Assembly: GCA_964468795.1 (NCBI GenBank)
Contig: CAYXWL010000001.1
Span: 96,221 to 145,586 of the forward strand
Origin: an uncultured Candidatus Saccharibacteria bacterium
GTDB lineage: Bacteria > Patescibacteriota > Minisyncoccia > Phycocordibacterales > DATDWN01
DNA length: 49,366 bases
Direction of reading: 5' to 3'
Shown in pieces: positions 911-48,045 of this stretch (positions within the stretch are counted from its first letter, which is position 1; every line of letters begins with the position of its first letter). A program made the position numbers and the translations under genes. The notes beneath the pieces were generated by a model. It did not search any database. It was not told where the DNA came from and saw only the letters and a program-made list of their open reading frames with translations.

Positions 911-939
911 AAAAACACTCGGGATACCCGAGTGTTTTT
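911..939. terminator. bidirectional intrinsic terminator between convergent dsbA-like and helicase genes
   Basis: aaaaacactcggg-ata-cccgagtgttttt: 13-bp stem with an A-tract and a T-tract on either side. Confidence 0.7.
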
Positions 940-3998: not shown

Positions 3999-4023
3999 TG
4001 TGTGTCGGCGCTGTGCCGGTGTA

Positions 4024-4671
4024 CTACAGGAGTCCGCGGATCGAATCCGCCTCCTCCTTGCGCTTGCTGAGGAGCCTCTGACGCTGCGTCTGAGCAGCGG
4101 CGATGTTGAGCTCGGTCGCGCGATCGTCGCGGTTCTTCTTCGCGAGTCGCTTCGTTTCTTCCTCCCGAACCATGCGCACACGGTCGCGCTTGCGCTGTTC
4201 TGCATCGGCCTCGACGAGCACCTTACTCATCGAGTTGTACGCCATGATGCGCTGATCGAAGGTGCCGTTCGTCTCGACCCTGACGGCCTCCTCGAGTTCC
4301 TTTCGGAACTTCTCGAGGCGGGCGAGAAGATCGGCGTCGAAGCCATCTTCGCGCCGGAGACGAATCTCACGAACGAAGAAAGCCTCCTTGGCGACGGTTG
4401 GATCCTGTCCTTCTGCCACCTCCGCCATCTGGCTGACGACGGAGTTGCGCAGGAACTTTCCCAGGATTGAGCGGCCGACGGAGAAGATCTCCCCGGCCTT
4501 CGCGATGGCGTCGTCCTGCTGACCCAGTTCGATATGGCCAGCCATGGCTTCCACCATCCCCTTGATCGGTTCGCCAACCTTGAATCCCGTCACCGACTTC
4601 ATCGTGGTGATGAGAGTCTTCACACGGTCGGTCGACTGCTCGAGGGTCATGCCGTTGGGAATCTTCTTCAT
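4024..4671 (-). CDS. GC-rich hypothetical protein (unit A), charged and probably coiled-coil C-terminal half
   Basis: ATG (MKKIPNGMTLEQ) is preceded by GGAGG at 5-nt spacing. 37/60 G+C in 4021-4080, strong G/C third-position bias. C-terminal part is E/R/K/A-rich. No family recognised. Confidence 0.6.
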   Translation of the reverse strand: MKKIPNGMTLEQSTDRVKTLITTMKSVTGFKVGEPIKGMVEAMAGHIELGQQDDAIAKAGEIFSVGRSILGKFLRNSVVSQMAEVAEGQDPTVAKEAFFVREIRLRREDGFDADLLARLEKFRKELEEAVRVETNGTFDQRIMAYNSMSKVLVEADAEQRKRDRVRMVREEETKRLAKKNRDDRATELNIAAAQTQRQRLLSKRKEEADSIRGLL

Positions 4672-4775
4672 CTCAACCTCCAAAGTTTTCCTCAAAGAGC
4701 GAAATTGCTCTCCAGGAAAATAGGCTTATAAATAAGCTAAGCTCATTTTCCTGTGAACAAATCTTTATAGTTAAA

Positions 4776-4804
4776 AGTATAGCATATAAAAATATATATG
4801 TCAA
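4776..4804 (-). promoter_or_regulatory. sigma70-type promoter for unit A (TTGACA-17-TATACT)
   Basis: Reverse complement reads TTGACAtatatatttttatatgcTATACT. It would give a leader of about 100 nt containing hairpins AGGAAAAT/ATTTTCCT and AGAGC/GCTCT. Confidence 0.5.
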
Positions 4805-4833
4805 ATAAATTTTGTGAAGAAATCTAACCTACC

Positions 4834-4859
4834 AAAAACGGCTCAATTGAGCCGTTTTT
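4834..4859. terminator. bidirectional intrinsic terminator downstream of rpoD
   Basis: aaaaacggctc-aatt-gagccgttttt. Confidence 0.65.
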
Positions 4860-4861
4860 AT

Positions 4862-4983
4862 AAACTTTCATAATTTGGATGAAATCCGATGTGAGGAATT
4901 TAAAATACGAGGAGCCTTATTGAACATAAGGTGACGAGCATTTTAAATTCGGGAACTAGGAGTTCGCCAAATTTGGAAGTTTT
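4862..4983. repeat. structured inverted-repeat element R1 (same subfamily as 43385-43513)
   Basis: Imperfect outer arms aaactttcataatttgg / ccaaatttggaagtttt. Perfect 10-bp stem aatttaaaat/attttaaatt. Apex gccttat-tgaac-ataaggtga. Ends 3 nt before the rpoD stop. Confidence 0.6.
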
Positions 4984-4986
4984 ATT

Positions 4987-6258
4987 CTAATAATAGTTTC
5001 GAAGGCGATTGATCTTCTCATGCTGTCTGATCTTCTCATGCGCCTTCGCCTCAATCTGCCTAATTCTTTCTCGTGTCACACCGAATTCCTTTCCTACTTC
5101 CTCGAGTGTATGAGTTACTCCGTCAACCAATCCATGTCTTAGCTCCAAAATCTTTCTCTCTTTTTCTGGCAAATCGTTCAAAATTTCTCGCACCTGATCT
5201 GAAACAATCCTCCGTGCAGATTCCTGATCTGGAGAAAGAATTTTTTCATCTGCCAAGAAATCCCCAAGCTTTGATTTTGAATCATCATCTTCGCCGATAG
5301 GTGTTTCTAGCGACAGCGTTGATTGATCGATTTTTTCTATAGTGTAAATCTTATCAACAGAAAGATTCATTTCAGTTGCGATTTCTTCTGGCAATGGATC
5401 TCGGCCCAAATCCTGTGCAAGCCTTCGCACTACCTGCTTGTACTTGGCGATTGTTTCAACCATATGCACAGGCACTCGGATAGTTCTAGACTGATCAGCC
5501 AATGCTCTCGTGATTGCCTGCCTTATCCACCAAGTTGCGTACGTCGAAAACTTGTAACCTTTTGTCCAATCAAATTTATCTACAGCCTTGAATAGTCCCA
5601 AGTTTCCTTCCTGAATAAGGTCGAGAAGAGTAAGGTCTGCAGATCTGTTTGCGTATTTCTTTGCAATTGAAACCACAAGTCGCAAGTTTGCTCGTGCTAA
5701 AAGATTTTTTGCTTCCTCATCCCCTGCCTCGATTCTCTTTGCAAGCTCTTTTTCCTGGCCTCCGGAAATAAGCGGATACTGTCCGATTTCTTTTAGATAC
5801 ATTTGGATGGAATCGTATGAAGACTCTCCGCCTCTTCCGTAAGTATATTTCTTTCCAAGCAGATCTTCGCTAGGATTCTCGAGAAGTCCTCCTCCTTCCA
5901 AAATATCTACTCCGCTTGTCTGTAGCTTTTCGTAAAGCTCATCTAGAAAAACAATATCTTCTTCGACGTGAGGAAACTCTTTTAGGATTTCATCATAAGT
6001 GATATAGCCTTTTTCCTTTCCCTTAGATAAAAGTCTAGCAAGACCGGCTTCTTGCCTATCTTCTTTCTTTACTACAGGCTTTGCTCCAGCCTTAACAGCA
6101 GATGTTGCAAGGGCGACGTGAGCTTTTTTCTTTGCCCGGATTTTAGGAAGAGCAACTTTCTTTGCCTTTTTAACCTTTGACGCCTTCTTCACCACTTTTT
6201 TTGCGGACTTTCGCGCCTTAGGATTATTCTTTTTTGACTTTGTTTTACCTTTTTTCAT
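4987..6258 (-). CDS. rpoD: RNA polymerase sigma factor RpoD (sigma-70), K/A-rich N-terminal tail
   Basis: Regions 1.2-4 are recognisable ([57 protein letters not shown]). Overlaps the dnaG 3' end by 14 nt. Confidence 0.95.
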
Positions 6259-7642
6259 TTCTATTTTTTATTGAATTGAGTTTTTGGGAGAGAGTTTGGC
6301 AGATTTCAAGGTATTTTAGGACCTCGCTGCTGTTTCTGCTTTGTTCTGCTTTTTGCAAGTTTATCATTGCATCTGCGAAATCTTTTTTCAGGTACTCTTC
6401 TTCGAGTCCGCGCAGAAGCTCATTTATTTCTAGATTTAAATTATCTTTATTATTATAATAACTTTCCGTTTCAAATAATAGTGCTTCCCTGTCTTTTTCC
6501 AATGTTTTCAAAAGTTCTTCTGTTCTGCCGTTGAATATCTCGCCCGTCTTTTTCTCTATTGATTCTATGTCTACACTTGCTCCCGCATTTTTATTTCCTC
6601 TTAGCCATATCAGTAGTCCCAACACTTTCTTTTCGATTATATCCAGCCTTTTGCCTTGAGGGGGAGCCGTGCCTTGAGGCGGTGGAGAATAAACACCGGG
6701 ACTTTGCTCCAACTTTTTTAGATCATCCCACAAAGCTTCTTCTTTTATAAATGTCTTCTTTGCAATATTTTTAACGAAGTGGGATTTTTCGATAGATGAG
6801 GACAGTAGTGCAATATAAGGCAGAACATTTTTTCTTATCTCTTCGCCGAGAGCCCTGCCTTCGAGTTTCTTTTCTAAAAGCTTATCAGTGTAAAAGTCCA
6901 CAATATGCTTTGATCCTCTGACTACTTCCTTTAGCTTTTCTGGATCTTCCTTGGCGAGGTCAGCAGGATCTTTGCCCTCTGGCATTTGAGCTACTTTGAG
7001 CTCCATGCCTAGCCTCAATGCTATTTGAGCGCTTCTGTTCGATGCTGTAAAACCAGCTTCGTCTCCGTCATATGCCATGATTATCCTGTTTGAAAGCCTT
7101 CTTAATTTTATCAAGTGATTTTCCGTAAGGGCTGTCCCCGAGGAAGCAACTGTGTTTGTTATGCCTGCCTGATGAAGCATAACAAGGTCCATCTGCCCCT
7201 CGACCAAAATAGAATAATCTTTCAGCCTAATTTCTTTTTTAGCCTTATCAAGCCCGAATAATATTTCAGATTTATTGAACAGCTCTGTTTCTGGACTGTT
7301 TAGATACTTTGGAGATTTGTCATCTGCAACAAGAATTCGCCCAGAGAAGCCGACAATCCTGCCCGATGAATCTGCAATCGGAAACATTATTCTTCCTCTG
7401 AAAGTATCGTAAAAAGAAGAAACTCCTCCCTCTTTTCTTTTTATAAGGCCGGTATCTAACATTTCAGCGTCGCTTACGCCTTTTGATTTCAAGTGGTCAT
7501 ACAAATCTCTCCACTCGAGCGGAGCGTATCCTATCCTGAAGCCTTTTATTGTTTCTTTAGTAATGCCTCGGCTGGCAATGTAGTCTGAAGCGGGCCTGCT
7601 TTCTGAAAGCTTGTTTTCATAAAACATAGTTGCCTGTTCCAA
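6245..7642 (-). CDS. dnaG: DNA primase DnaG, RNA-polymerase/TOPRIM and C-terminal part, downstream of an in-frame TAG
   Basis: TOPRIM motifs ([19 protein letters not shown]). In the same frame as 7694-8005, separated only by TAG at 7694-7696. Confidence 0.85.
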
Positions 7643-7693
7643 AACAGCGTGCAGTTTGTCCTTTCGGGGTTTTTCGGCAGTTCCATGACTTTC

Positions 7694-7969
7694 CTAACTT
7701 ACGCCAGCTCTATCGGCCAAAACTTTCAGACTTCCGATAAAATCTAGGCCTTCGAACTCTTGAACAAAAGTGAAGATATCCCCTTTTGCATGACAGCCGA
7801 AACAATAGTAGCTTCCTCTATCCGGAGACACGAAAAAGGATGGCGTCTTTTCATTATGAAATGGACACCTTCCTTTGAAATTCGCGCCCGCTTTTTCAAG
7901 CTTTATATATGAGCCGATTAGCGAGACAATATCTATTTTTGATTTTATGAGGTCAACAGATGATGACAT
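7694..7969 (-). CDS. dnaG: DNA primase DnaG, zinc-binding domain segment ending at an in-frame TAG
   Basis: CPFHNEKTPSFFVSPDRGSYYCFGCHAKGD zinc ribbon. Likely start is MSSSVDLIK at 7969. Confidence 0.85.
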   Translation of the reverse strand: MSSSVDLIKSKIDIVSLIGSYIKLEKAGANFKGRCPFHNEKTPSFFVSPDRGSYYCFGCHAKGDIFTFVQEFEGLDFIGSLKVLADRAGVS

Positions 7970-8044
7970 AATTTTTTTAGTCTTCACCCCCTTTTCACAA
8001 TCCAACTACAATCTTAACCTAGCAAGATGAGATTTCTCTGAAAC

Positions 8045-11000
8045 CTACTGCTGAACTTCGTACGGCAACGGTCTCTTTGATCGCAAATCTTCGATAAGCT
8101 TTGCTTTCTTTGAACCCTTGAATCCTGTACCTGCTGGAATAAGTCTTCCAAGAATAACGTTCTCCATAAGTCCTGAAAGCTCGTCCTCATTTCCCCTTAG
8201 GGCTGAGCCAATAAGCATTCGAGTAGTGTGCTGGAATGATGCTGCAGCTAGGAAGCTCTTTCGAGATAGTGAAATGTCTGTAATACCCATCACGACATCC
8301 TCTGCCTTTGCCTCCTCCTTTCCTTCTGCCTTTACTCGAGCATTTTCTTCTGCAACATAAGCTAGCTCGACGATATCTCCTTCCAAGAAGTTAGTATCAC
8401 CTGAAGATTTTATCTTCTTTCGAGAGAACATTTGTCTTACGATAGTTTCGATGTGCTTTCGAGACACTGTTTCTCCTTGAAGCTCGTATGGTCGGTTGAT
8501 TTCGTGAATAATGTAATCGATTGTCTTCTCCTTTCCTGCATATTTGAACAAATCATCAATATCTGCAGAACCGTCTGTTATCATATCTCCTCGTTTTACC
8601 TCATCACCAACTTTTACGTAGATAGTTCTGTATGGAGGTACGACGTATTCTATCTTGTCCTTTGTCTTTGTCCTGTCTTCAAGGTTTGGAGTAATGACAA
8701 TAGTCTTTTCCTTGTCAGTTACTCTGATTTCAGAAACTGTTCCGGAAACTGAGCAGACTACTGCAGGGTTCTTTGGCTTTCGCTTTTCTAGAATCTCTTC
8801 CACTCGTGGAAGACCCTGAATGATGTCTCCTCCAACTGAGGCGGCACCGGCAGCGTGCTTTGTGTTCATTGATAGCTGTGTTCCTGGCTCTCCGATAGCC
8901 TGTCCTGCAACTGTTCCAACTGCTTCTCCAAGTTCAACCACTTTGTTCTTTCCAAGATCAACTCCGTAGCACTTTACGCAAATACCGTTGAGAGTCTTGC
9001 ATGATAGAGGTGATCGAACTTTTACAGCATTGACACCAGCAGCCTCTACAGCTTCTGCATCCTTCTTTGAAAGAAGATGGTCTTTTTTGAATAGCACTTC
9101 CCCACTTGGAGAAACAACGTCAGCAGCCAAGAATCTTCCCTTGATGTTCTTTGCGATTGAAATTTCCATTCCAATAGCTGAGTTCTTGTCTATGACAATG
9201 TGATCCTTTGTTCCGCAATCCTCTTCCTTTATCATCGTGTCCTGAGCCACAACGAACAGCTTTCGAGTAAGGTAACCAGCCTTTGCAGTGTTTAGAGCAA
9301 GGTCGGTAAAGCTCTTTCGTGTACCGTGTGTAGTAATGAAGTATTCAAGAGGTGTAAGTCCTTCTTTTGAAGATGAGATGATTGGGAATTCGATAGTTTC
9401 TCCGAAGACGTTTGAAATAAGTCCCTTCATACCTGCCATCTGAGTTACGTTCGCCATCGAACCTCGAGCTCCAGAAGACACCATGTCTGCTACTGATCCG
9501 TTCTTTGGAAGTGTCTCAGGCATAATCTTTTCAATCTCTGCCTTTGCTCCGTGCCAAATTTCAGTTGTTTGTCTCTTTCTCTCTTCTTTTGAAATAAGCC
9601 CCTGATTAAAGTGTTCTATAACTGTATCAGCTTTTGATTTTGCCTTTGCGATGATAGAAGACTTTGCTTCTGGAATGACGATATCTTCAAGTCCCCATGT
9701 GATACCAGAGTAAGTAGCGTACTTGAATCCGAAATTCTTGATAGCATCAATTATCTTCGGTACGTTTTCAATTCCATACTTTTCAATTAGATCATCTACA
9801 AGAGTTGAAATTTTCTTTCGGTTTATTTCTCCGTTTATGAATGGATAATCCTTTGGCAATACAGAGTTGAACAATAGTCTTCCTACTGTAGTATCGAATA
9901 TCTTTCCTTCAAATCCCTTGTATTTCTCTGAATTTGTAGGAAGAACTTTTATTTTTGCTCGGAAAGACACTTCTCCCAAATCGTATGCCATGATAGCTCG
10001 GTTAGGATCAGCAAACATCTTTCCCTCTCCCTTATCTCCTGAAACTTCCTTTGTCATCCAGTAGCAACCAAGCACGATATCAAGCATTTTTGCTGATACA
10101 GTAGGATCTCCAGAACCTGGCTTTAGAATGTTCTTGTCCGAAGCCATTATTTCCTTTGCCTCAAGCTGTGCCTCATCTGAAAGAGGAACGTGAACGGCCA
10201 TCTGGTCTCCATCGAAGTCTGCGTTGAAAGCAGAACATACTAGAGGGTGAAGCTGGATAGCGTTTCCTTCGATAAGCACTGGTTTGAAAGCCTGAATACC
10301 AAGCCTGTGAAGGGTAGGTGCTCGGTTAAGAAGAACATACTTCTCTCTAATTACTTCTTCAAGGATTGCCCATACTTCTGGAATTCCATCCTCAATCAGC
10401 TTTGATGCGCCTCTTATGTTGTAAGCCAGTTCCTTCTGCAAAAGCTGAGAAATAACAAACGGCTTGAATAGCTCAAGAGCCATGTGCTTTGGAAGTCCGC
10501 ACTCTGAAAGCTTTAGATCGGGGCCCACAACGATAACTGATCGTCCTGAGTAGTCTACTCTCTTACCAAGAAGGTTCTGTCTGAAGATTCCTCTCTTTCC
10601 TTTCAAGTTATCTGCCAAAGACTTCAGCGGTCGTCTCTGCGACTGATTTACTGCTCCGCTTGCTGAACCGTGACGTGCAGAGTTGTCGATGAGAGCATCA
10701 ACTGCTTCCTGCAAGATTCTTTTTTCGTTTCGCAAAATAACATCTGGAGCATGAATTTCTTTCAGCTTCTTTAGTCGGTTGTTTCGGTTTATTACCCTTC
10801 TATACAAATCGTTCACGTCTGAAGTCGCATATCGTCCTCCATCTAGCGGAACCATAGGTCGCAATGCCGGCGGAATAACAGGGATGTGCGTTAGGAACAT
10901 CCACTCTGGCCTAATGTTTGAATTTATCATTGCTGAAACTACGCTGATTCTCTTTGAAATCTTTGCAGCATCAACACTGCTTGCCTTTGCATGCTCTTCG

Positions 11001-29298: not shown

Positions 29299-31548
29299 TT
29301 ATTTAGCCACTGCCACTGCCTCATCAAAAGCAACGGATAGAAGCTTTGAGCCTCCGCCAGAACCCATAGTCACACCGTACAAAACACCAGCTCGAGACAT
29401 TGTTTCCCTATTGTGAGTAATAACAATAAGTTGCGACCTCTTGGAGAGATTTTCAACCATATCAGCATATTTTTTAGAATTTGCCTCATCGAGTGCAGCG
29501 TCTGTCTCATCCAAAATAATGAAGGGTGGAGGATTTACCTGAGAAATTGCAAACAAAAGCGCGATAGATGTCAGCGCTCTTTCTCCGCCGGAAAGCATCA
29601 TGAGGCCTTTTACCTTTTTCTTCGGCAAATTTACCTCTATATCTATGCCCTCCTCTTCTTCCACAGTTTCAACAAGATCATCTTCTGAATTATTTTCCAA
29701 AAGTTCATCAATTTCTTTTTTCTTTTTTCTTACTGGCACACTGACAGACAAATGTGCATCCCCGCCACCAAACATAAGGGAAAAATATTCTCTAAACTGG
29801 TGATTTATTTTTTCTACACCGCTTTTGAACTCTGTAGAAAGCCTCTCGTCCAAATCTTTTATAAGCTCTGTTAGTGATTTTGCAGAGTTTTCAAGATCCA
29901 AAAGCTCTTTTGCCAAAAAAGCGTCTCTTTCCGTGGCTTCGGCATATTCTTTCATAACATCATCTCCTCCAATTCCGCCAGAATCTTCAAGCCTGATCTT
30001 TATCTTTTCAATTTTTCTTCTTCTTTCTTCCTGAACTTCTCTCGGCTCACTAAAATCAAAGTTCAATTCTTTGAACTGCAAAACATGAGTTCCGACGAGC
30101 ATTCCAAGCTCTGTAAGTTCTCTCTTGAAATCCTCCTTTACCAGCCTTAGATTTTCTTCTACGGCGTTTATATCGTGGATCTTTGACCTTATCTCCTGAG
30201 ATTCCGCCATTATTCTGAACACGGCCTTTTCTGCATCTCTGTTTGAATCCTTTTCCTTTTCAATTTCAGATTTTAAGTGGTTATATCTTTCCCCCAAGCG
30301 ATTTTCCTTTTCTTTTATATCGCCGAGCGCTTTCTCAATCTCTTTTTTTGAATTATTTAGATGATCAATATCCTTTTGAGCATCTGCAAGGAGTGACATG
30401 TCTACGTTGTCCTTGTTGTAATCAATGAATTGAGAAAGGAGGCTCGAGATTTGATCTAATGCAGAAACCAATACCCCGATATCATTGCTTCCCTTCGCCC
30501 TTTTTATTTCTTCCTCTATTTTGTTTGAAATTTCTTCCACAGAAGAAAGAGCTACAGTCTTGTGCTCGTATGAATGAGCAACCTCTTCCTGCTTTTTAAC
30601 CATCTTTACCAAAGATGAAATCTCTCCATCTATTTTTCCAAACTCTCTGAACAGATTGTCTTTCTTGTCTCTTGCTTCATGCAGTTCTCTTTCAAGGGAA
30701 ATGAGTTCGTCGCTCTTCTCATCCTTGTTTTTGGTTTTCTCTAATACAGACTTTGCATGCTCTAACTCTTTCTCGAGCACCATTTCCTTTTCTAAAAGAG
30801 GCTCTTTCTGGCTTTTTACTTTTGATTCAGTTGTATGTATGTACTCTTCTTCTCTCCTGCAGTACTCTAGTGCTTCTTTTGTCAGCTCCTCTTTCATCTG
30901 CAAGGATTTTTCAACCTTTTCAACCTGCTTTTTCAAAAACTTTATGTGAGGCATAATTTCCCTCCTCAATGACTCTACTTTTTCAATATTTTCCCTAGTC
31001 TTCTCCAATTTCTTTTCGCTTTCCTGCTTTTTGTACTGATATGCCTTAAGGCCCAAGGCGTCCTCGATCATTGACTTCCTCTCTTTTGTGCTAGCATTCA
31101 AAATACGATCTGCCTCGCCCTGTGAAATAATATGATGTCCAGAAGAACCTATGTGCGCCGAAGCTAGTAGTTCAACAACGTCCTTTAGCCTTACTTGTGC
31201 TCCGTTTATCAGATACTCGTTTACTGAATCTCTATGAACCACTCTTTCAATCGTGACAGTCTCGTAGTCTATAGGCAAAAATTTTGAAGAGTTATCAAAA
31301 ACGACTTTTACACTCGCTCTGTTTGCTCTCGGCAAATCTCCTGCTCCGTTAAAAATGAGATCTTCTCCCTTTTTACCTCTCAAGCTTTTTATAGACTGCT
31401 CGCCCAGCACAAACCGAAAAGCCTCAGCTACATTGGATTTTCCGGATCCGTTTGGACCCACAATGGCCACAACTTTAGATGTAAACGTAAGCTCGCTTTT
31501 CTTGGCGAAAGATTTGAAACCAGAAAGTTCAATAGATTTGAGATACAT
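29299..31548 (-). CDS. smc: SMC-family chromosome segregation ATPase, short form without a recognisable hinge
   Basis: N-terminal GPNGSGKSN head, C-terminal LSGGERALTSIALLF and ILDETDAALD. Only 749 aa, and the middle is continuous coiled-coil-like sequence. Confidence 0.8.
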   Translation of the reverse strand: MYLKSIELSGFKSFAKKSELTFTSKVVAIVGPNGSGKSNVAEAFRFVLGEQSIKSLRGKKGEDLIFNGAGDLPRANRASVKVVFDNSSKFLPIDYETVTIERVVHRDSVNEYLINGAQVRLKDVVELLASAHIGSSGHHIISQGEADRILNASTKERKSMIEDALGLKAYQYKKQESEKKLEKTRENIEKVESLRREIMPHIKFLKKQVEKVEKSLQMKEELTKEALEYCRREEEYIHTTESKVKSQKEPLLEKEMVLEKELEHAKSVLEKTKNKDEKSDELISLERELHEARDKKDNLFREFGKIDGEISSLVKMVKKQEEVAHSYEHKTVALSSVEEISNKIEEEIKRAKGSNDIGVLVSALDQISSLLSQFIDYNKDNVDMSLLADAQKDIDHLNNSKKEIEKALGDIKEKENRLGERYNHLKSEIEKEKDSNRDAEKAVFRIMAESQEIRSKIHDINAVEENLRLVKEDFKRELTELGMLVGTHVLQFKELNFDFSEPREVQEERRRKIEKIKIRLEDSGGIGGDDVMKEYAEATERDAFLAKELLDLENSAKSLTELIKDLDERLSTEFKSGVEKINHQFREYFSLMFGGGDAHLSVSVPVRKKKKEIDELLENNSEDDLVETVEEEEGIDIEVNLPKKKVKGLMMLSGGERALTSIALLFAISQVNPPPFIILDETDAALDEANSKKYADMVENLSKRSQLIVITHNRETMSRAGVLYGVTMGSGGGSKLLSVAFDEAVAVAK

Positions 31549-31586: not shown

Positions 31587-31609
31587 GGGCATCGCGAAAT
31601 GCGATGCCC
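31587..31609 (-). terminator. intrinsic terminator after the ParB-like operon
   Basis: gggcatcgc-gaaat-gcgatgccc: 9-bp stem. Confidence 0.6.
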
Positions 31610-31655
31610 GGTTTATTTACCTCCTATAAATGAACTATGGTGCCGAAAGAAAATC

Positions 31656-32519
31656 CTACGAAGCCTTCGCGACCTTCTCGGACTTCTTCGAGGGAAGCTC
31701 GATCCCAGCCTTCGCCGCGAAACGCGCACGCCAGTCGGCGAGCACACGTCCGGACCGGTCAGCCAGGCGCTGGAGGTGATTGAAGATATCGTTCACTTCA
31801 CCCGCCTTCAGATCGCCGTCCTCGAACTTTTCGATGAGGTTGCGGCAGAACGCCGCGTTGCGCTGGCCGATCGACTTGTACTGCGACGTCAGCTTCCGCT
31901 GAGTGTCGGCGAGGCTATTGCCCCGCTTCTTCCGAGTGCCAGAGAGAAACTCCTTGAGCTTCTCGGGAGGCACGTCGAACTGCTGAGCCGCCTTGGCAAC
32001 CGTGAGGTTACCGTCGGTGACGGCCGCCCCAGCCTTGACGATCTTGGCCCGATCAAGTCGCGACTTCACACTGCCGGCGTACTTGCGAGCGATGTTGCCC
32101 GGAAGACCGAGCAACTCGCCGATTGCACGCATGCTGACACCCCTTTCGAGGAGCAGTGCGATCGTGTGCTCGGTATCTGCGATCGACGGTGGCATGGATC
32201 CGCCGGTGTTGGCGCGGAACCCTGCGGCGATGAGGTCGGTCTCGGAGTCGACCTTGTAGATCTCGACTTCGATCTCGAGCACATCGGCGAGTTCGTAAGC
32301 CTCCTTGCGGTGGCGACCGTCGATGATGAGGTGTTCCTCGGTGAGCTTGACCTTCTCACGCATCTTGACCCCGCCGATGATGAGATCGGCCAGGTACAGC
32401 GCGTGATCGTGATTGAGCTCCTGCCGGACGAAGGTGTTAACCTTGATGTCCTTCACCTTCACGGTTTCGGTGCGAATGAACTTCATCTCTCGTCTCCCGT
32501 CTCTTGTCTTACGTCTCAT
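31656..32519 (-). CDS. GC-rich ParB/Srx-fold (ParB N-terminal domain) protein with HTH-like middle region (unit D4)
   Basis: HLIIDGRHRKEAYE is the ParB-like DGxHR motif. VSMRAIGELLGLPGNIARKY is HTH-like. The ATG overlaps the upstream stop as TAATG. Alternative start MKFIRTE at 32486 has a GGGAGA SD. Confidence 0.7.
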   Translation of the reverse strand: MRRKTRDGRREMKFIRTETVKVKDIKVNTFVRQELNHDHALYLADLIIGGVKMREKVKLTEEHLIIDGRHRKEAYELADVLEIEVEIYKVDSETDLIAAGFRANTGGSMPPSIADTEHTIALLLERGVSMRAIGELLGLPGNIARKYAGSVKSRLDRAKIVKAGAAVTDGNLTVAKAAQQFDVPPEKLKEFLSGTRKKRGNSLADTQRKLTSQYKSIGQRNAAFCRNLIEKFEDGDLKAGEVNDIFNHLQRLADRSGRVLADWRARFAAKAGIELPSKKSEKVAKAS

Positions 32520-32755
32520 TACTGATCAGACGGTCTGTAGAACCGCCCACTGTAAGCGCGCCATCCGGAGCGCTTCTTGCGAATGTCCGAAAGGATGACT
32601 ACGTCACCTTCTTCCGGCTGCCTCTTCTCCTGCCAAACTTCCGGCTTGAGAGAGAATGTAACCGAGCCAAGCTCCTCCGAAGAGGCTTTGGCATAGGGGC
32701 CGTGCACGCCCTCAGCGAATGTCTTCTGGACGATTGCTGAAAAGCTTTCACCCAT
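32519..32755 (-). CDS. GC-rich hypothetical 78-aa protein (unit D3)
   Basis: Its start follows the upstream stop within GTGTAAGATG, suggesting translational coupling. No family recognised. Confidence 0.55.
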   Translation of the reverse strand: MGESFSAIVQKTFAEGVHGPYAKASSEELGSVTFSLKPEVWQEKRQPEEGDVVILSDIRKKRSGWRAYSGRFYRPSDQ

Positions 32756-32756
32756 C

Positions 32757-33539
32757 TTACACCTTCTTGCCCGTGATGAGTCTCATGTTGAGTACGCTCA
32801 TGTGAGCGGACAACTTCGTGATGCACATCTGGGCAGCTGAGTCGAGTTCCTGCATCTCCTTCTCGTTCAGGGATTCAAGAACCCCCTCGTCGAGAAGTAG
32901 TACAAGTCCTTCCATAATCTGAAGAGTCGCCCTGCGACGCACTGCAATCTGAGACTGACTCTCAGGCATGCGAATGACCTTCGCGACGGATTGCTCTTCG
33001 ACCTGGATTTGACCTGGAAATTCGATCACAAACTTTCTCTGAGCATCTTTCTTCTTCTGCTCGAGAAGTTCACGACGTGACTTCCAGTATGACCACATCT
33101 TCTCTTCCCGGTCTTGGCTTACCCCCCGATCTCCACGCATTGCTGCGTAGATTTCAGAGGTATGAGCGAAACCGATCTCAGATGCAACATTGTCCGGGCT
33201 TTCGATCCCGTAGCCGATGATCTCGGCCAGGTTTCGAAACGTGGCACTGAGTCTTTCGAACTCAATGATCCGATACCCCTGGAGATCCAGGAAGCAGTAC
33301 AGCTTGAGTCGCGACAGACCAACGATGTTGGTCTTCCGACTCGGGTTCGGAGTGAGCCAGACGCCGACGGTGGCCGTATCAACGTCACAGAATTCCACAA
33401 TAGGCATCGCCGCGGATTTGAGCCGGTGACGCGCCATAGGAGGAAATGCGACATTGAAAGCCCTGATGAAGTGCTCGAAGCACTCATCAAAGTGATCCCT
33501 GAGGACCTCGGGCCTACCATCTCTCTGATTTACTTGCAC
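32757..33539 (-). CDS. GC-rich hypothetical 260-aa protein with two HTH-like stretches (unit D2)
   Basis: GTG start with GGAAGG SD. VDTATVGVWLTPNPSRK and SPDNVASEIGFAHTSEIYAAMRGDRGVS resemble XRE-type HTH. Helical C-terminal region. Confidence 0.55.
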   Translation of the reverse strand: MQVNQRDGRPEVLRDHFDECFEHFIRAFNVAFPPMARHRLKSAAMPIVEFCDVDTATVGVWLTPNPSRKTNIVGLSRLKLYCFLDLQGYRIIEFERLSATFRNLAEIIGYGIESPDNVASEIGFAHTSEIYAAMRGDRGVSQDREEKMWSYWKSRRELLEQKKKDAQRKFVIEFPGQIQVEEQSVAKVIRMPESQSQIAVRRRATLQIMEGLVLLLDEGVLESLNEKEMQELDSAAQMCITKLSAHMSVLNMRLITGKKV

Positions 33540-33575
33540 ATTTGCACCTTCCTTTCAAACAACTCACCGGGTTTA

Positions 33576-33604
33576 TTATTAACATTAAATGAATATTTTG
33601 TCAA
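33576..33604 (-). promoter_or_regulatory. sigma70-type promoter for D2-D3-D4 (TTGACA-17-TAATAA)
   Basis: Reverse complement reads TTGACAaaatattcatttaatgtTAATAA. Sits in a short AT-rich spacer, after hairpin gaaaagca-ctcc-tgcttttc, which follows unit D1. Confidence 0.5.
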
Positions 33605-33654
33605 TAAAAGAAAAAGCACGCCTTCGAAAAGCAGGAGTGCTTTTCTGTAGCGTG

Positions 33655-33918
33655 CTACGTGATATAGGGATCGTAAGGGATGACTTGGATTCTTCCCTCC
33701 TCATCTGTTCTCTCGACCACTCTGTATTCACCATGAGTAGAACATTCATAGGTAGTGGTTCGATTGTAGAAAGGCCCATCAGCAACATATTCAGAAATGA
33801 GCTTGCCCTGACTGTAGCACCCCCTCTGCGGACAGAGAAACGGATCTTTGCCCGCAAATACCAGTGCAATGCCGAGAAGCACAAAGACGATCAGAACAAC
33901 TATTACAGTCTCTGGCAT
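33655..33918 (-). CDS. GC-rich small membrane-anchored Cys/His protein (unit D1)
   Basis: AAGGAG SD. TM helix VIVVLIVFVLLGIALVFAG, then CPQRGC...YECSTH, a possible zinc-binding pattern. Confidence 0.55.
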   Translation of the reverse strand: MPETVIVVLIVFVLLGIALVFAGKDPFLCPQRGCYSQGKLISEYVADGPFYNRTTTYECSTHGEYRVVERTDEEGRIQVIPYDPYIT

Positions 33919-33975: not shown

Positions 33976-34671
33976 TTAGATCCACTTTTTGATTTCTAGG
34001 GCTTTTTTAGCAGCCATCTGCTCTGCGTCCTGCTTTGATTCCCCTTCTCCTGTTGCGATAAGATCCTTGCCTACGTATACACCAACTGTGAATTTCTTTT
34101 TGTGGTCGAGTCCTGACTCTTTTACTGTTTTATATGATGGAGTAATGCCCTCAAACTCCTGAGCTTTTTCTTGGAAAAGAGATTTGGAATCAATATGGCT
34201 CTTTTTTGAAATAATAGTATCAATTAGAGGCATGAAATGAAGCTCAATAAATTTTCTTGCTTCATCCATCCCTTTGTCCAAATAAATCGCGCCGATTAAA
34301 GCTTCCAACGCATTGGCCAAAATGTACTGCCTTGCTCGTCCTATATCCTTGCTCTCGCCTTTTGAAAGCAGAAGAAAATCTCCCATCTCAAGTTTAGATG
34401 CGACAGAAGCGCAAGTATCTGCGTTTACTAAGGCAGACCGATATGCAGTCAGCTCACCCTCCGGCTTTGTCGGATATTTTTTAAAAAGGTTGTCAGTGAT
34501 AACAAGTTCGAGAACAGCATCGCCTAAAAACTCTAGTCTTTCATTGTGAGTAAGGCCAGATTGTTTGTTTTCGTTTATATATGATCGGTGAACAAAAGCT
34601 TGTGTTAAAAGACTCTTATCACCAAATTCAATATTTATTTTCTTCTCGAATTCCTTGAAATCCACAGTCAT
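33976..34671 (-). CDS. rnc: ribonuclease III
   Basis: NERLEFLGDAVLEL signature and a C-terminal dsRBD. TCGACA-17-TATAAT, with the -10 element 9 nt before the ATG. Confidence 0.92.
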   Translation of the reverse strand: MTVDFKEFEKKINIEFGDKSLLTQAFVHRSYINENKQSGLTHNERLEFLGDAVLELVITDNLFKKYPTKPEGELTAYRSALVNADTCASVASKLEMGDFLLLSKGESKDIGRARQYILANALEALIGAIYLDKGMDEARKFIELHFMPLIDTIISKKSHIDSKSLFQEKAQEFEGITPSYKTVKESGLDHKKKFTVGVYVGKDLIATGEGESKQDAEQMAAKKALEIKKWI

Positions 34672-35156: not shown

Positions 35157-36038
35157 CTACTTTTTTAAAAGAATATTTATGGCTTTCGTAACTAAAGGCA
35201 AAATATCATTATAAAAATTAAGATCCAAAATATCCTGAAGCTTAAACCATCGAGCATCGTCTAGACCTCCCTTATCCTCTTTTACAATATCTTTAAATGG
35301 AGATTCAGCTAAATAGTAAACTACGTGTTTTTTAGTTTTTCCCTTTTCTGGGTGATAAGCGATGTATTCATTTTCTCCGAGCTTGTCTTTTAGGGTGATA
35401 TCAAGACCCATCTCTTCCTTTACGCCTCGTATTATTCCAGCCTCGATTTCTTCATCCGGTGCAATCTTGCCTTTTGAAAGAGTCCATTTGCCAAAAACAT
35501 CATGCACTAAAGCAAGGTAAATATCTTCCCCGTCTTTTGCAAAGACAACTGCTCCCCCCAAATTTTCAGTAATAACTGCGGAGTTTTTCTTTTCCTTTGT
35601 CGTATCATCCTTTCCAGGCTCACCAAGCTCTTTGTAAACTGCACCCAATACTCCGTTTACGAATTTGCTGGAAGTTTCACCTCCAAATGTCTTTGCAAGC
35701 TCGATAGCTTCATTGATAGCAACTTTAGGAGGAACTTGAGTTCTGTCTGCAAACAAAAGCTCGAACAGACCTATTCGCAAAATATTCCTGTCCATCACGC
35801 TTATCTTTTCTATTGGCCAATCAGGAGCGGCTTTTTCTATTATGTGATCAATATCTTTTTGCTTTTCAATTACGCCTTTTATGAGATTTTCCATAAAAGA
35901 AAAATCTCCATGACCTGGAGCAAATTCCTCGACATTGCGCACAAATATTTCTATAACATGATTAGAGTCGCTTCCGTTGAAATCGGATTCGAATAGAGAT
36001 TGTAAAACTATAGATCTAGAAAGGTGCCTATTTGCCAT
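35157..36038 (-). CDS. nusB: NusB antitermination factor fused to a C-terminal NUDIX hydrolase domain
   Basis: NusB-like N-terminal half (RSIVLQSLFESDF..., PPKVAINEAIELAKTFG). C-terminal Nudix box GKIAPDEEIEAGIIRGVKEEMGL. Confidence 0.8.
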   Translation of the reverse strand: MANRHLSRSIVLQSLFESDFNGSDSNHVIEIFVRNVEEFAPGHGDFSFMENLIKGVIEKQKDIDHIIEKAAPDWPIEKISVMDRNILRIGLFELLFADRTQVPPKVAINEAIELAKTFGGETSSKFVNGVLGAVYKELGEPGKDDTTKEKKNSAVITENLGGAVVFAKDGEDIYLALVHDVFGKWTLSKGKIAPDEEIEAGIIRGVKEEMGLDITLKDKLGENEYIAYHPEKGKTKKHVVYYLAESPFKDIVKEDKGGLDDARWFKLQDILDLNFYNDILPLVTKAINILLKK

Positions 36039-45742: not shown

Positions 45743-46138
45743 ATGGCCAGCATGATTAAGTTTGTCCTTGCAGTTTTGTTCGTGATGTCAGTGATCGTGT
45801 TCGGCCTCAACTCGGCCACTCACACCGAACGCAACACGACTGGATTCACCCAGACAACCAAGATCTCGAATGACCATGTACCGTTCGACCGCTACTGTGG
45901 CTACTTGCTCTCAGTCGGCCACGGCTCAATCACGTTCGAAGATAGAGAACCAATCGAGATCGTGCATTTGACCTTTAGGGGTCGAACTGCCGACTCGACA
46001 ATCACAAGGATTCTCTACGGAGACGAAGGTCGTCTTCGCAAGATCCGAGCTGGCCAGTTCTACGACATCGGCGCTCGGCGGTACAACGACAACTGGTCGT
46101 TTCCACGACGCCTCGACGTGGTGAGTGGTTGCAACTAG
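45743..46138 (+). CDS. GC-rich hypothetical secreted or membrane-anchored protein (unit J)
   Basis: AAGGAG SD. Signal anchor IKFVLAVLFVMSVIVFGL. No family recognised. Confidence 0.55.
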   Translation: MASMIKFVLAVLFVMSVIVFGLNSATHTERNTTGFTQTTKISNDHVPFDRYCGYLLSVGHGSITFEDREPIEIVHLTFRGRTADSTITRILYGDEGRLRKIRAGQFYDIGARRYNDNWSFPRRLDVVSGCN

Positions 46139-46167
46139 ACCACATCACCCCACCCCGACAACAGAAA

Positions 46168-46198
46168 CCCCGCCCAGCGGATCTGTGGCGGGGTTTTT
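46168..46198 (+). terminator. intrinsic terminator after unit J
   Basis: ccccgcc-N12-ggcgggg-ttttt. Confidence 0.6.
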
Positions 46199-46203
46199 CG
46201 TAC

Positions 46204-46232
46204 TTGACAAAATAAATAAATCCATGTAATGT
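46204..46232 (+). promoter_or_regulatory. sigma70-type promoter for unit K (TTGACA-17-TAATGT)
   Basis: TTGACAaaataaataaatccatgTAATGT. Confidence 0.45.
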
Positions 46233-46249
46233 ACATGACGGATTAAATA

Positions 46250-46320
46250 GAGCTAAGTAGCTGAAAGAATTCACTTTCCCTCCTTAGCTCATGCGGCATG
46301 ACGCCGCGAGCAAGGAGGAG
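46250..46320 (+). promoter_or_regulatory. structured leader with SD-sequestering helix and a competing upstream helix
   Basis: CCTCCTT-a-GCTC-at-GCGGC [atgac] GCCGC-GAGC-a-AAGGAGG buries the SD (46312-46318). GAGCTAAG (46250-46257) can instead pair with CTTAGCTC (46283-46290). Confidence 0.5.
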
Positions 46321-46322
46321 AG

Positions 46323-46550
46323 ATGAGGGAGTATGACCTTTTCAAAGTGATCGCAGGCACGGACCTGCGGGGATGCTTCAGCCGGGACTACCGGCTGTGG
46401 GAAGAGTGGGTAGCAAATCCCGCCCTCAAGGCCAGGGGATATAAAATCCTCAGGCAATGGTATTCTGTCGACGGCGACTCTTTCGGACCTTTGGTCCGCG
46501 GAGTTATAGTCGAAAAGGACGGCGAGAAAAAGCTTCTCACATACGGCTAG
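46323..46550 (+). CDS. GC-rich hypothetical 75-aa protein (unit K)
   Basis: AAGGAGG SD. No family recognised. Confidence 0.5.
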   Translation: MREYDLFKVIAGTDLRGCFSRDYRLWEEWVANPALKARGYKILRQWYSVDGDSFGPLVRGVIVEKDGEKKLLTYG

Positions 46551-46863: not shown

Positions 46864-48045
46864 ATGTCAAAGACGGCAAAGGAACTCTACTCCTCCCCAG
46901 AACTAGAGAGAAATGAATATTTTGAAACTGATCCTAAAGACGCAGAATTGCGAGCAGAACTCCAAAAAAGGACAGACACCGAGAGCCTTCGAATGAAGCG
47001 CTATTTGTCTATGGACGACCTTTCACGAAAGGAAGGCAGTCCTATTAAAGAGATCGCAGACAGGGTAAAAGCTCTAGAAACTTTCAAAAAATTTGATGTC
47101 ATAACTATTCCAGAGATTGTGCCAGTAGTTCAGACTTTTGATCTCTTTGACTTCCCCGCAAATCATCCAGCACGAAGCAAATCTGACACATACTACGTTT
47201 CAGAAGATTATATTTTGCGAACACACATGACGGTCATGTGGTACTACTATTTCCGAAAGCCGGAGATAAAAGAAAAAATGGCAAAGGGTTTGGACATGGC
47301 AGTAATTTCTCACGGGAAAGTTTACAGAAAAGATGAGATAGATAGACGACACATGAATATCTTCCATCAGGTGGATGGCTTATATATCTGCAAGAAGAAC
47401 GAAAAAATTATTGACCAAGAAGACTTGAAGGAAGTTTTGGTAGAAGTTGGTCAGGCAGTATTTGGAAATGATATTGCATATAGATTTAACCCAGACAACT
47501 TCCCCTACACACACGACTCTTTGGAAATGGAAGTAGAGGTCAACGGCCAGTGGGTGGAAGTGCTAGGTGCAGGAGTTGTACAGCCGAGCGTTTTGGAAAA
47601 ACTTGGAGTTGATTCAAACACATACAACGGCTGGGCATTTGGATTTGGCCTCGAGCGACTAGCCATTATTTCAATGGAACTACCAGACATACGCCTCTTA
47701 TGGTCAGACGACCCTCGTGTAACAAAACAGCTAGTTTTGGGTCATAAGTTTGAGGAGGTTTCCAAGTTCCCTCCTGTAGTACGGGATATTTCGTTCATAA
47801 TTTCTAAATCTTTCGTATTGAATAATTACTTTGACCTTGTGCGGGAAATTGGCGGAGACCTTATAGAAGAAGTAAAGATAATAGATACATACGAAAATGA
47901 GGCAAAATTCGGCAAGGACAAAATAAGCTATGCTTTCAGGATCACATACAGGTCACTCGAAAAAACCCTGACAGACGAGGAGGTAAATGCAATTCACAAA
48001 AAAATAGAAGATGCAACGCGAGAGCTTGGCGGACAGGTTCGATAA
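46864..48045 (+). CDS. pheS: phenylalanine--tRNA ligase alpha subunit
   Basis: Class II motifs (HPARSKSDTYY, LRTHMTVMW, GWAFGFGLERLA). No pheT follows. Confidence 0.9.
   Translation: MSKTAKELYSSPELERNEYFETDPKDAELRAELQKRTDTESLRMKRYLSMDDLSRKEGSPIKEIADRVKALETFKKFDVITIPEIVPVVQTFDLFDFPANHPARSKSDTYYVSEDYILRTHMTVMWYYYFRKPEIKEKMAKGLDMAVISHGKVYRKDEIDRRHMNIFHQVDGLYICKKNEKIIDQEDLKEVLVEVGQAVFGNDIAYRFNPDNFPYTHDSLEMEVEVNGQWVEVLGAGVVQPSVLEKLGVDSNTYNGWAFGFGLERLAIISMELPDIRLLWSDDPRVTKQLVLGHKFEEVSKFPPVVRDISFIISKSFVLNNYFDLVREIGGDLIEEVKIIDTYENEAKFGKDKISYAFRITYRSLEKTLTDEEVNAIHKKIEDATRELGGQVR

Follow-up and report, generated by a model that had tools for sequence, protein, structure and literature searches.

We analysed a 49,366-nucleotide stretch of an uncultured Candidatus Saccharibacteria bacterium (contig CAYXWL010000001.1; hereafter, the window), which carries three contiguous minus-strand genes, denoted D2, D3 and D4, between smc and rnc. 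These genes form a real, conserved and co-inherited operon. Structural modelling indicates that D4 adds a member to a known fold class, being an orphan ParB-CTPase-fold protein; D2 constitutes a new protein family with a new architecture, and D3 a new small protein family. The operon represents the theme of a ParB-like clamp combined with a partner protein, in a phylum, the Patescibacteria, where none had been described. The explanation that we tentatively favour is that the trio is an autonomous accessory operon specific to Patescibacteria, whose products would make up a nucleoprotein module consisting of an orphan ParB-type clamp or switch gated by a nucleoside triphosphate (NTP) and a partner regulator. 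An earlier note on this DNA had proposed a "DNA-targeting or regulatory module", a label that is plausible.

The conservation of the trio was assessed through homologues of its products. D4 has at least 130 cluster-level homologues sharing 41–60% identity, nearly all of them in metagenome-assembled genomes of Patescibacteria. When one genome per GTDB species was scanned (185,579 genomes), 46 loci were identified across many lineages of the candidate phyla radiation (CPR), labelled Minisyncoccia, Zambryskii-, Nomura-, Uhr-, Lloyd-, Magasanik-, Giovannoni- and Vogelbacteria, and Microgenomates, some of the locus labels being generic pipeline labels. The order D2-D3-D4 is kept in about 45 loci, and D2 directly precedes D4 in about 50. 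The earlier note had described the three genes as tightly coupled; of the outcomes that it named as contradicting its reading (no co-occurrence of homologues, no ParB fold in D4, a chimeric assembly), none was observed. Homologues of D2 (225–280 aa) and D3 (82–106 aa) lie upstream of D4 in nearly all loci, D3 being undetectable in about six, and the gene junctions are mostly gaps of 1–4 nt or overlaps of 4 nt. The pairwise identities of D2 and D4 correlate (r = 0.70), which fits co-inheritance. A tiny circular element was also considered, because many D4 homologues are found on contigs of ~2.26 kb, and rejected, given that these contigs show no terminal overlap and that the contig of locus L001 merely ends inside smc.

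The operon is delimited by its own signals. D2 (positions 32757..33539, minus strand; 260 aa, GTG start) is preceded by a σ70-type promoter (33575..33604, minus strand), which reads TTGACA, 18 nt, AATAAT and matches the consensus at 11 of 12 positions in a consensus scan; the promoter previously proposed here is therefore present, with the spacing now read as TTGACA-18-AATAAT (33604–33575). A TTGACA promoter of its own, often with a TG-extended -10 element, stands ahead of D2 in nearly all homologous loci. The short 5' leader (33540..33574, minus strand), as read from the sequence, contains the semi-conserved stretch GTTGTTTGAAAGGAAGG close to the Shine-Dalgarno (SD) sequence, and a leader ending in '...TTTGAAAGGAGG' recurs in many homologous loci. 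D3 (32519..32755, minus strand; 78 aa) follows D2 across a junction that reads GTGTAAGATG. D4 occupies 31656..32486 (minus strand; 276 aa), within an open reading frame (ORF) that reaches 32519 and would encode 287 aa. The longer form had been proposed to start at a TAATG stop-start overlap, which is doubtful; the internal ATG at 32486 is the more likely start, since gene callers and the alignment of homologues agree on it. D3 and D4 nonetheless overlap by 4 nt in many homologous loci. Downstream of D4, a Rho-independent terminator (31587..31609, minus strand) comprises a 9-bp stem, in which 7 pairs are G-C, with a T run behind it, and this terminator hairpin likewise recurs in homologous loci. 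The trio would thus be transcribed from its own strong promoter, with transcription ending at its own terminator. The terminator hairpin, the hairpin following the orphan ORF D1 (33615–33656), the SD sequence of D1, the D2/D3 junction and two peptide motifs of D4 (LIIDGRHRKEA and VSMRAIGELLGLPGNIARKY) were all confirmed as the earlier note had given them, as were the coordinates of the four minus-strand ORFs D1–D4. Chimeric assembly, which that note had considered, was discarded: independent ENA and Logan assemblies both give the order rnc-D1-D2-D3-D4-smc.

To define the nature of D4, we examined its predicted structure. The AlphaFold2 (AF2) model, obtained with a 33-sequence alignment, has a predicted local distance difference test (pLDDT) score of 90.9. 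When it was compared with the PDB using Foldseek, the top matches were ParB-CDP (6sdk), ParB-CTPgS (7bnr), Caulobacter ParB, Noc, KorB (8qa9), pNOB8 ParB-N and PadC, with KorB 8qa8 and 7ol9 among further matches; E-values went down to 3e-6 over ~200 columns, corresponding to the N-domain plus the helix-turn-helix (HTH) region. Foldseek assigned a probability of 1.00 to the matches with ParB, Noc, KorB, PadC, sulfiredoxin (Srx) and SbnI, the last two of which match the N-domain of D4 alone. At the profile level, D4 matches Spo0J (6sdk) with an E-value of 0.019 and shows a weak match to a ParB-like PHROG, and ParB_N is precomputed for many D4 homologues. The ParB/Srx fold anticipated from the sequence motifs therefore withstood both structural and profile analysis.

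The N-domain of D4 contains an FVR motif (Box I-like), a DGRHR motif and the pattern RAN-GG..PP..DTEHT. HMMER and hhalign align residues D56-G57-R58-H59-R60 with GERRFRA of Bacillus subtilis Spo0J, which corresponds to Box II (GxxR); thus, the GxxR box, whose presence the earlier note had left to be checked, exists in D4, and its residues G57, R58 and R60 are invariant across 33 D4 sequences. Invariant as well are V20, R21 (which lies in the Box I region), N93, G95, P100, D104 and H107. An ungapped manual alignment places A92-N93 on E111-N112 of Spo0J (ENLQR box), a region that the HMMER and hhalign alignments stop short of. Beyond the N-domain, Pfam detects an HTH_23/HTH_28-like segment and then a psq-like one, which together account for two HTHs and are followed by a long C-terminal helical hairpin. 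The same Pfam search revealed no HTH_ParB or ParB_C in D4. No match to a nuclease or transposase catalytic domain was obtained. Furthermore, the protein begins straight at the first strand of the fold (residues 2–10), lacking an N-terminal ParA-binding peptide (LG-R/K-GL). Its N-domain would bind a nucleotide, the HTH region is bipartite and the helical tail would mediate dimerisation; D4 is accordingly proposed to be an NTP-gated DNA clamp or switch and not to serve in partition.

The genomic surroundings of the trio bear on the same question. No ParA-like gene flanks it in the window or in the loci with annotated flanks, and the reported lack of ParA, replication and phage structural genes nearby was corroborated. 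A canonical ParB (ParB_N + HTH_ParB + ParB_C) is encoded 88 nt downstream of the trio in locus L019, and a homologue of it belonging to the same BLAST cluster lies ~1.2 kb from the trio in L048. The proximity of these proteins argues that D4 is not the partition ParB of the cell but an extra, paralogue-like switch, and the idea that D4 could be the only ParB of its host was rejected on the same grounds. As a separate observation, ORFs resembling LAGLIDADG-type homing endonucleases lie shortly ahead of the trio at two loci that are unrelated (L019, 2075–2653; L006, 5128–5592), so that in L019 the trio stands between a LAGLIDADG-type ORF and a canonical parB without an adjacent parA.

The two partner proteins were analysed in the same way. 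The AF2 model of D2 (68 sequences) has a pLDDT of 89.7 and presents XRE-type HTH domains followed by a long helical C-terminal hairpin. Foldseek retrieved no full-length structural match for D2 in the PDB or BFVD; matches were found at the level of the HTH domain only, to XRE/Cro-C1-type proteins including C.BclI (probability 0.99), C.Esp1396I and phage HTH proteins, with 2–3 Å root-mean-square deviation. Several members of the D2 family, which comprises 389 clusters at 50% identity, match HTH_3 (XRE), HTH_17 or HTH_23. The XRE-like HTH and helical tail that had been read from the sequence of D2 were in this way recovered by profiles and structure alike. The conserved residues of the protein are R14, H16, E19, C20, F50, C51, W61 and C82, and the sequence positions R14, H16, E19, C20, C51 and C82 hint at a putative metal site. 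A domain shared between D2 and D4 was looked for with hhalign and rejected (probability 1.2%).

D3 is small and strongly conserved; its GWRA and VW-E motifs and the residues G16 and G19 are invariant. Searches with D3 gave no Pfam or PDB match, only scattered Pfam similarities (E >0.01) to SH3, WYL and OB families, and its identification as a cold-shock/OB domain was dismissed after comparison with CspA by hhalign (probability 0.8%). None of the four proteins D1–D4 matches NCBIfam. In L012, L043 and L045, D3 is fused to the C-terminus of D2, a natural fusion that provides a ready hypothesis for complex assembly. We propose that D2 would act as a dimer and, through its XRE-type HTH domains, add a second contact to DNA, this one site-specific, that D3 would act as a small adaptor bound to D2, and that a complex of D2, D3 and D4 would control transcription or DNA accessibility, in the first place at its own promoter by autoregulation, through a clamp-plus-partner mode of action such as that of KorB-KorA/TrbA or BisD-BisC.

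KorB of plasmid RK2 is a ParB-family, CTP-dependent sliding clamp that is locked by a small HTH repressor, KorA (PMC11790492) or TrbA (PMC13584720). D4 resembles KorB in its ParB fold, GxxR box, HTH and dimerisation region, as reflected in the structural matches to 8qa9 and 8qa8. In both cases a ParB-like gene stands beside the gene of a separate HTH DNA-binding protein (here D2), a regulatory role would not need a ParA partner, and the strong promoter of the operon is probably self-regulated. However, IncC serves as a ParA partner of KorB, which has defined OB sites, is plasmid-borne and regulates a plasmid regulon; the trio is located on the chromosome, and neither a binding site nor a target was found for it. 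D2 (260 aa, XRE-type HTH plus coiled coil) is unrelated to KorA and TrbA in sequence and size, and the trio differs from the KorB systems in having a third small component, D3, and in the apparent non-conservation of the Box III glutamate in D4.

A second comparison is offered by BisD-BisC of the integrative and conjugative element (ICE) ICEclc, in which a ParB-like CTP clamp with an activator domain works with a promoter-bound partner (PMC12409273). In the trio as in BisD-BisC, the gene of an orphan ParB-like protein with a GxxR pocket adjoins that of a DNA-binding partner, the role would be regulatory rather than segregational, and there is a link to horizontally moving DNA; the C-terminal activator domain, the FlhC-like BisC, the 100-kb ICE and the bisS sites are absent from the trio. 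ParB/Spo0J and Noc, for their part, share with D4 the N-domain fold (E-value of 3e-6 to 6sdk, 7bnr and 7ol9), the Box I-like FVR, the Box II GxxR and the order N-terminal domain (NTD)-HTH-dimerisation region, but D4 has no ParA-binding peptide, adjacent parA, HTH_ParB or ParB_C, and no parS was found. Moreover, D4 is rare and patchy, unlike the near-universal canonical ParB.

Orphan ParB-fold proteins have been reported to be common and to bind CTP, ATP or GTP, with a nucleotide specificity that is not predictable from sequence or AF3 (Kaljevic et al. 2025, PMC12704722). D4 shares with this class a ParB-CTPase fold encoded outside a parAB operon, the lack of a ParA-binding motif, an apparently divergent Box III and indications of horizontal transfer. 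Patescibacteria are not mentioned in the survey (0 occurrences in its text), nor did we find there a conserved operon of three genes that includes partners like D2 and D3; our literature search returned no paper relevantly linking ParB-like proteins with Patescibacteria.

Several findings weigh against a clamp-plus-partner regulator. No loading site was identified, as a parS-like palindrome common to the loci was not found, and no synonymous-site conservation was detected inside the genes; since third positions of conserved four-fold codons are not kept in identity, the genes hide no DNA element. KorB and BisD are plasmid- or ICE-borne and control many genes of these elements, but the trio has housekeeping genes on its flanks and no visible target regulon. 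D2 and D3 show no sequence relationship to KorA, TrbA or BisC, judging from the lack of Pfam or PDB profile matches. The catalytic glutamate of Box III (ENxxR) appears to be replaced by alanine in most D4 members (RAN, according to the ungapped manual alignment), which makes hydrolysis-driven cycling of D4 doubtful. Finally, a plain regulator does not account for the fast evolution and unusual third-position GC content (GC3) of the trio.

This fast evolution became apparent in the clade of the window organism, five relatives of which (L001, L015, L017, L018 and L031) carry the trio in the same neighbourhood. The flanks of the latter four are ~70% identical to the window at the nucleotide level, with amino acid identities of 76–81% for NusB, 73–82% for Rnc and 72–79% for SMC; in L001 only the N-terminus of SMC is available (84% identity). 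The arrangement differs among these relatives, the trio lying between nusB and rnc in L031, and an additional gene preceding smc in L017 and L018. Against these values of 72–84%, the identity within the clade is 49–61% for D4, 59–69% for D3 and only 36–44% for D2. The trio therefore evolves far faster than its neighbours.

The base composition of the trio is equally distinctive. The GC content is 56.4% over D2–D4 compared with 41.2% in the rest of the window, the D1 part being 43–47%. The earlier note had described an island of 60–67% GC, which proved too high: the value over 31587–33918 is 53.9%, and only the D4 part attains 61–62% in 200-bp windows. In the window, GC3 is 0.79 for D4 and 0.31–0.39 for rnc, smc and nusB, with D1 intermediate (0.48), and it increases along the operon in the order D2 < D3 < D4. 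The four syntenic relatives L015, L017, L018 and L031 show the same contrast, with 0.58–0.69 for D4 and 0.25–0.37 for the flanks. Across 33 loci, trio GC follows flank GC (trio GC = 0.66 x flank GC + 0.22; r 0.78), yet it exceeds flank GC by more than 3 points in 25 of them (mean +6.6 points; Wilcoxon p 3e-6). A foreign-like GC content despite apparently vertical descent in the clade could possibly result from repeated allelic replacement, from GC-biased gene conversion or from mRNA selection. Taken together, the fast divergence and patchy distribution of the trio and its foreign-like composition make a part in genetic conflict or in handling foreign DNA more likely than a housekeeping one.

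These features led us to weigh a defence or exclusion system acting against phages or plasmids, in which D2 and/or D4 would sense foreign DNA and D4 would serve as an NTP-dependent nuclease or modifier or as a spreading silencer. Besides a divergence above that of the neighbours (D2 and D4 versus NusB, Rnc and SMC) and the foreign-looking GC3, such a system would agree with the patchiness of 46 loci scattered over many CPR lineages among the species genomes scanned. ParB/Srx folds also occur in DndB, DUF262/GmrSD and Osa-type proteins. In addition, orphan ParB-fold proteins linked to mobile genetic elements have been reported (PMC12704722). Defence would likewise be consistent with the highly variable contexts of the trio: its neighbourhoods include peptidase M16/ligA, mraZ/lysS, xerC-like/rluA, hisS, queA and ruvX, and 110 of 147 flanking ORFs are singletons. 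However, these neighbours are housekeeping genes and not defence islands, none of D1–D4 matches PADLOC-DB v2 at E-values up to 1, and no effector motif (nuclease, toxin or NADase) is recognisable. The NTD-HTH-dimerisation layout of D4 is typical of DNA clamps, and all six close relatives of the host carry the trio, leaving no presence/absence polymorphism within the clade. We therefore regard defence as an unlikely explanation, although full-length D4-like genes do exist on viral contigs of IMG/VR, as described below. A specific association with smc was rejected: the trio lies beside smc only in the clade of the window, and no SMC was found at the other loci.

Another explanation is that the trio is a stranded or domesticated regulatory-maintenance module that a plasmid, prophage or other mobile element left behind after integration in a CPR genome. 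It would combine a repressor-like D2 with a ParB-like D4 and survive as a selfish, self-regulated cassette spread by recombination. Consistent with such an origin, D2 resembles the HTH repressors of phages and the controllers of restriction-modification systems, tyrosine recombinase (integrase-like) genes adjoin the trio in 3 of ~41 loci, trio GC is above flank GC in 25 of the 33 loci compared, and other small GC-rich inserts exist in the window, at 4000–4700 and 45950–46550. Nevertheless, no other mobile-element genes accompany the cassette, and neither terminal inverted repeats nor direct repeats nor att sites were found at its bounds; the reading of these bounds as transposon ends was accordingly rejected. 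Rfam families, and tRNA genes as integration targets, were also looked for in the window and none was found. The minimal trio, with promoter and terminator intact, recurs in more than 40 genomes, which points to selection on the unit itself and not to decay. When D4 was used as tblastn query, nothing related was retrieved from 50,697 phage (INPHARED) or 72,556 plasmid (PLSDB) records, and homologues in cultured phages or plasmids were thereby discarded. The link of the whole trio to defence islands, phages or plasmids contemplated in the earlier note thus found no support, there being no matches in PADLOC, INPHARED or PLSDB and the flanks being housekeeping genes. We consider it rather improbable that the trio is such a remnant.

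D4-like proteins are also encoded at 13 viral loci of IMG/VR. One of them, the 107-kb contig L061, carries a D2+D4 pair, a finding that would suit a stranded mobile-element module; nine others (L062–L070) carry a full-length D4-like gene (28–31% identity) without D2 or D3. The viral D4-like genes reside among replication and recombination genes, such as those of RecE-like and Cas4-like exonucleases, a radical SAM protein and DNA polymerase, and this placement in replication/recombination modules would likewise suit a mobile-element remnant. In L063 (IMG/VR contig 3300042196_000102), the D4-like gene, equipped with its own promoter, is inserted exactly between the halves of a family-A DNA polymerase, which correspond to positions 545–829 and 838–1232 of phrog_17. 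In this locus (4458–8477), the insert between the polymerase genes consists of the D4-like ParB-fold gene and a 119-aa ORF.

The arrangement in L063 is one reason to contemplate a free-standing homing cassette, in which D4 would be a homing-type nuclease that inserts into intergenic sites between conserved genes and the GC richness would stem from repeated gene conversion. In all cases the trio occupies an intergenic site between conserved genes, and in L031 it sits one gene away, between nusB and rnc instead of between rnc and smc. The high GC3 is kept across diverged relatives, and the bipartite HTH of D4 recalls the modules through which modular homing enzymes and transposases bind DNA. However, in the nearest related phages, L080 and L081, the polymerase is likewise split, but by other, unrelated genes, so that the slot appears to be generally variable and homing is not proven by it. 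No nuclease catalytic motif is known for the ParB subgroup of D4, three genes exceed the needs of a homing endonuclease cassette, and the cassette ends carry no repeats. The six relatives show no empty/filled polymorphism, the phylogenetic affinity of D2 and D3 tracks the host within the clade, and a full-text literature search gave no paper tying ParB-like proteins to free-standing homing endonucleases. Homing is, in our judgement, very unlikely.

Defence, a stranded element and homing all fit the fast evolution and patchiness of the trio better than a plain regulator does, yet each lacks positive evidence. A more specific form of the clamp-plus-partner module would be a previously undescribed three-component, CPR-specific switch in which the NTP-gated D4 clamp would be recruited or locked by D2, a double-HTH protein, via D3 and would silence or exclude foreign or incoming DNA, with cassettes exchanged among CPR lineages and hence rapid divergence and GC-rich synonymous sites. 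We put this forward as a speculation that is unlikely to be right.

ParB-type CTP switches outside chromosome segregation have been recognised only recently (KorB, BisD, Noc and PadC). The trio offers a compact, widely replicated natural example of how orphan ParB members may be wired to partner proteins, in a phylum of ultra-small cells with almost no genetics, and its D2 and D3 partners belong to no described family, as judged from the lack of Pfam, NCBIfam, PHROG or PDB assignment. Should foreign DNA prove to be the target of the trio, the sparse conflict repertoire known for the CPR would be extended by a ParB-based mechanism; should the trio be no more than an accessory regulator that controls itself, it would still contribute two new protein families and a further subgroup of orphan ParB proteins.

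The operon is flanked in the window by the gene of an RNase III (33976–34671; Ribonuclease_3 + dsrm) and by that of a 749-aa SMC_N protein (29299–31548), which confirms the location between smc and rnc given in the earlier note; farther away lie the genes of a NusB-NUDIX fusion and of RNase R. Between rnc and the operon promoter, D1 (33655..33918, minus strand) is an orphan ORF of 87 aa with a hydrophobic N-terminus, a C-x4-C...C-x2-H motif and an AAGGAG SD sequence ahead of it. It had been counted as a member of the island, but it falls outside the conserved unit, since none of 78 related loci contains a homologue of it and it clusters as a singleton. The rnc-smc gap around the trio behaves as a variable spot, with D1 in the window and other, unrelated ORFs in the equivalent gap of the relatives: 91 aa in L015, 138 aa in L031, 199 aa in L018 and a 341-aa RhuM/Fic-domain ORF in L017.

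Other features of the window deserve mention. Positions 4000–4700 form a second GC-rich mini-island (59–65% GC versus ~41%) with one ORF of 223 aa (4024–4695, minus strand) that has no Pfam match and is located just downstream of a 998-aa fusion of a UvrD helicase and a PD-(D/E)XK nuclease (938–3934). A further stretch of ~54–60% GC (45743–46550) contains two small ORFs without Pfam match, of 131 aa (with a hydrophobic N-terminus) and 75 aa, upstream of a long ORF (46864–48045), and may be a small acquired insert. The NusB-NUDIX protein (35157–36038; 293 aa), in which NusB is fused to a NUDIX hydrolase domain, is conserved as a fusion, with 76–81% identity, in four related Patescibacteria genomes. 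Typical SMC proteins have ~1,180 aa; the product of smc in the window has only 749 aa, with the SMC_N match extending over the whole protein, and this short form is kept in the relatives (747–787 aa).

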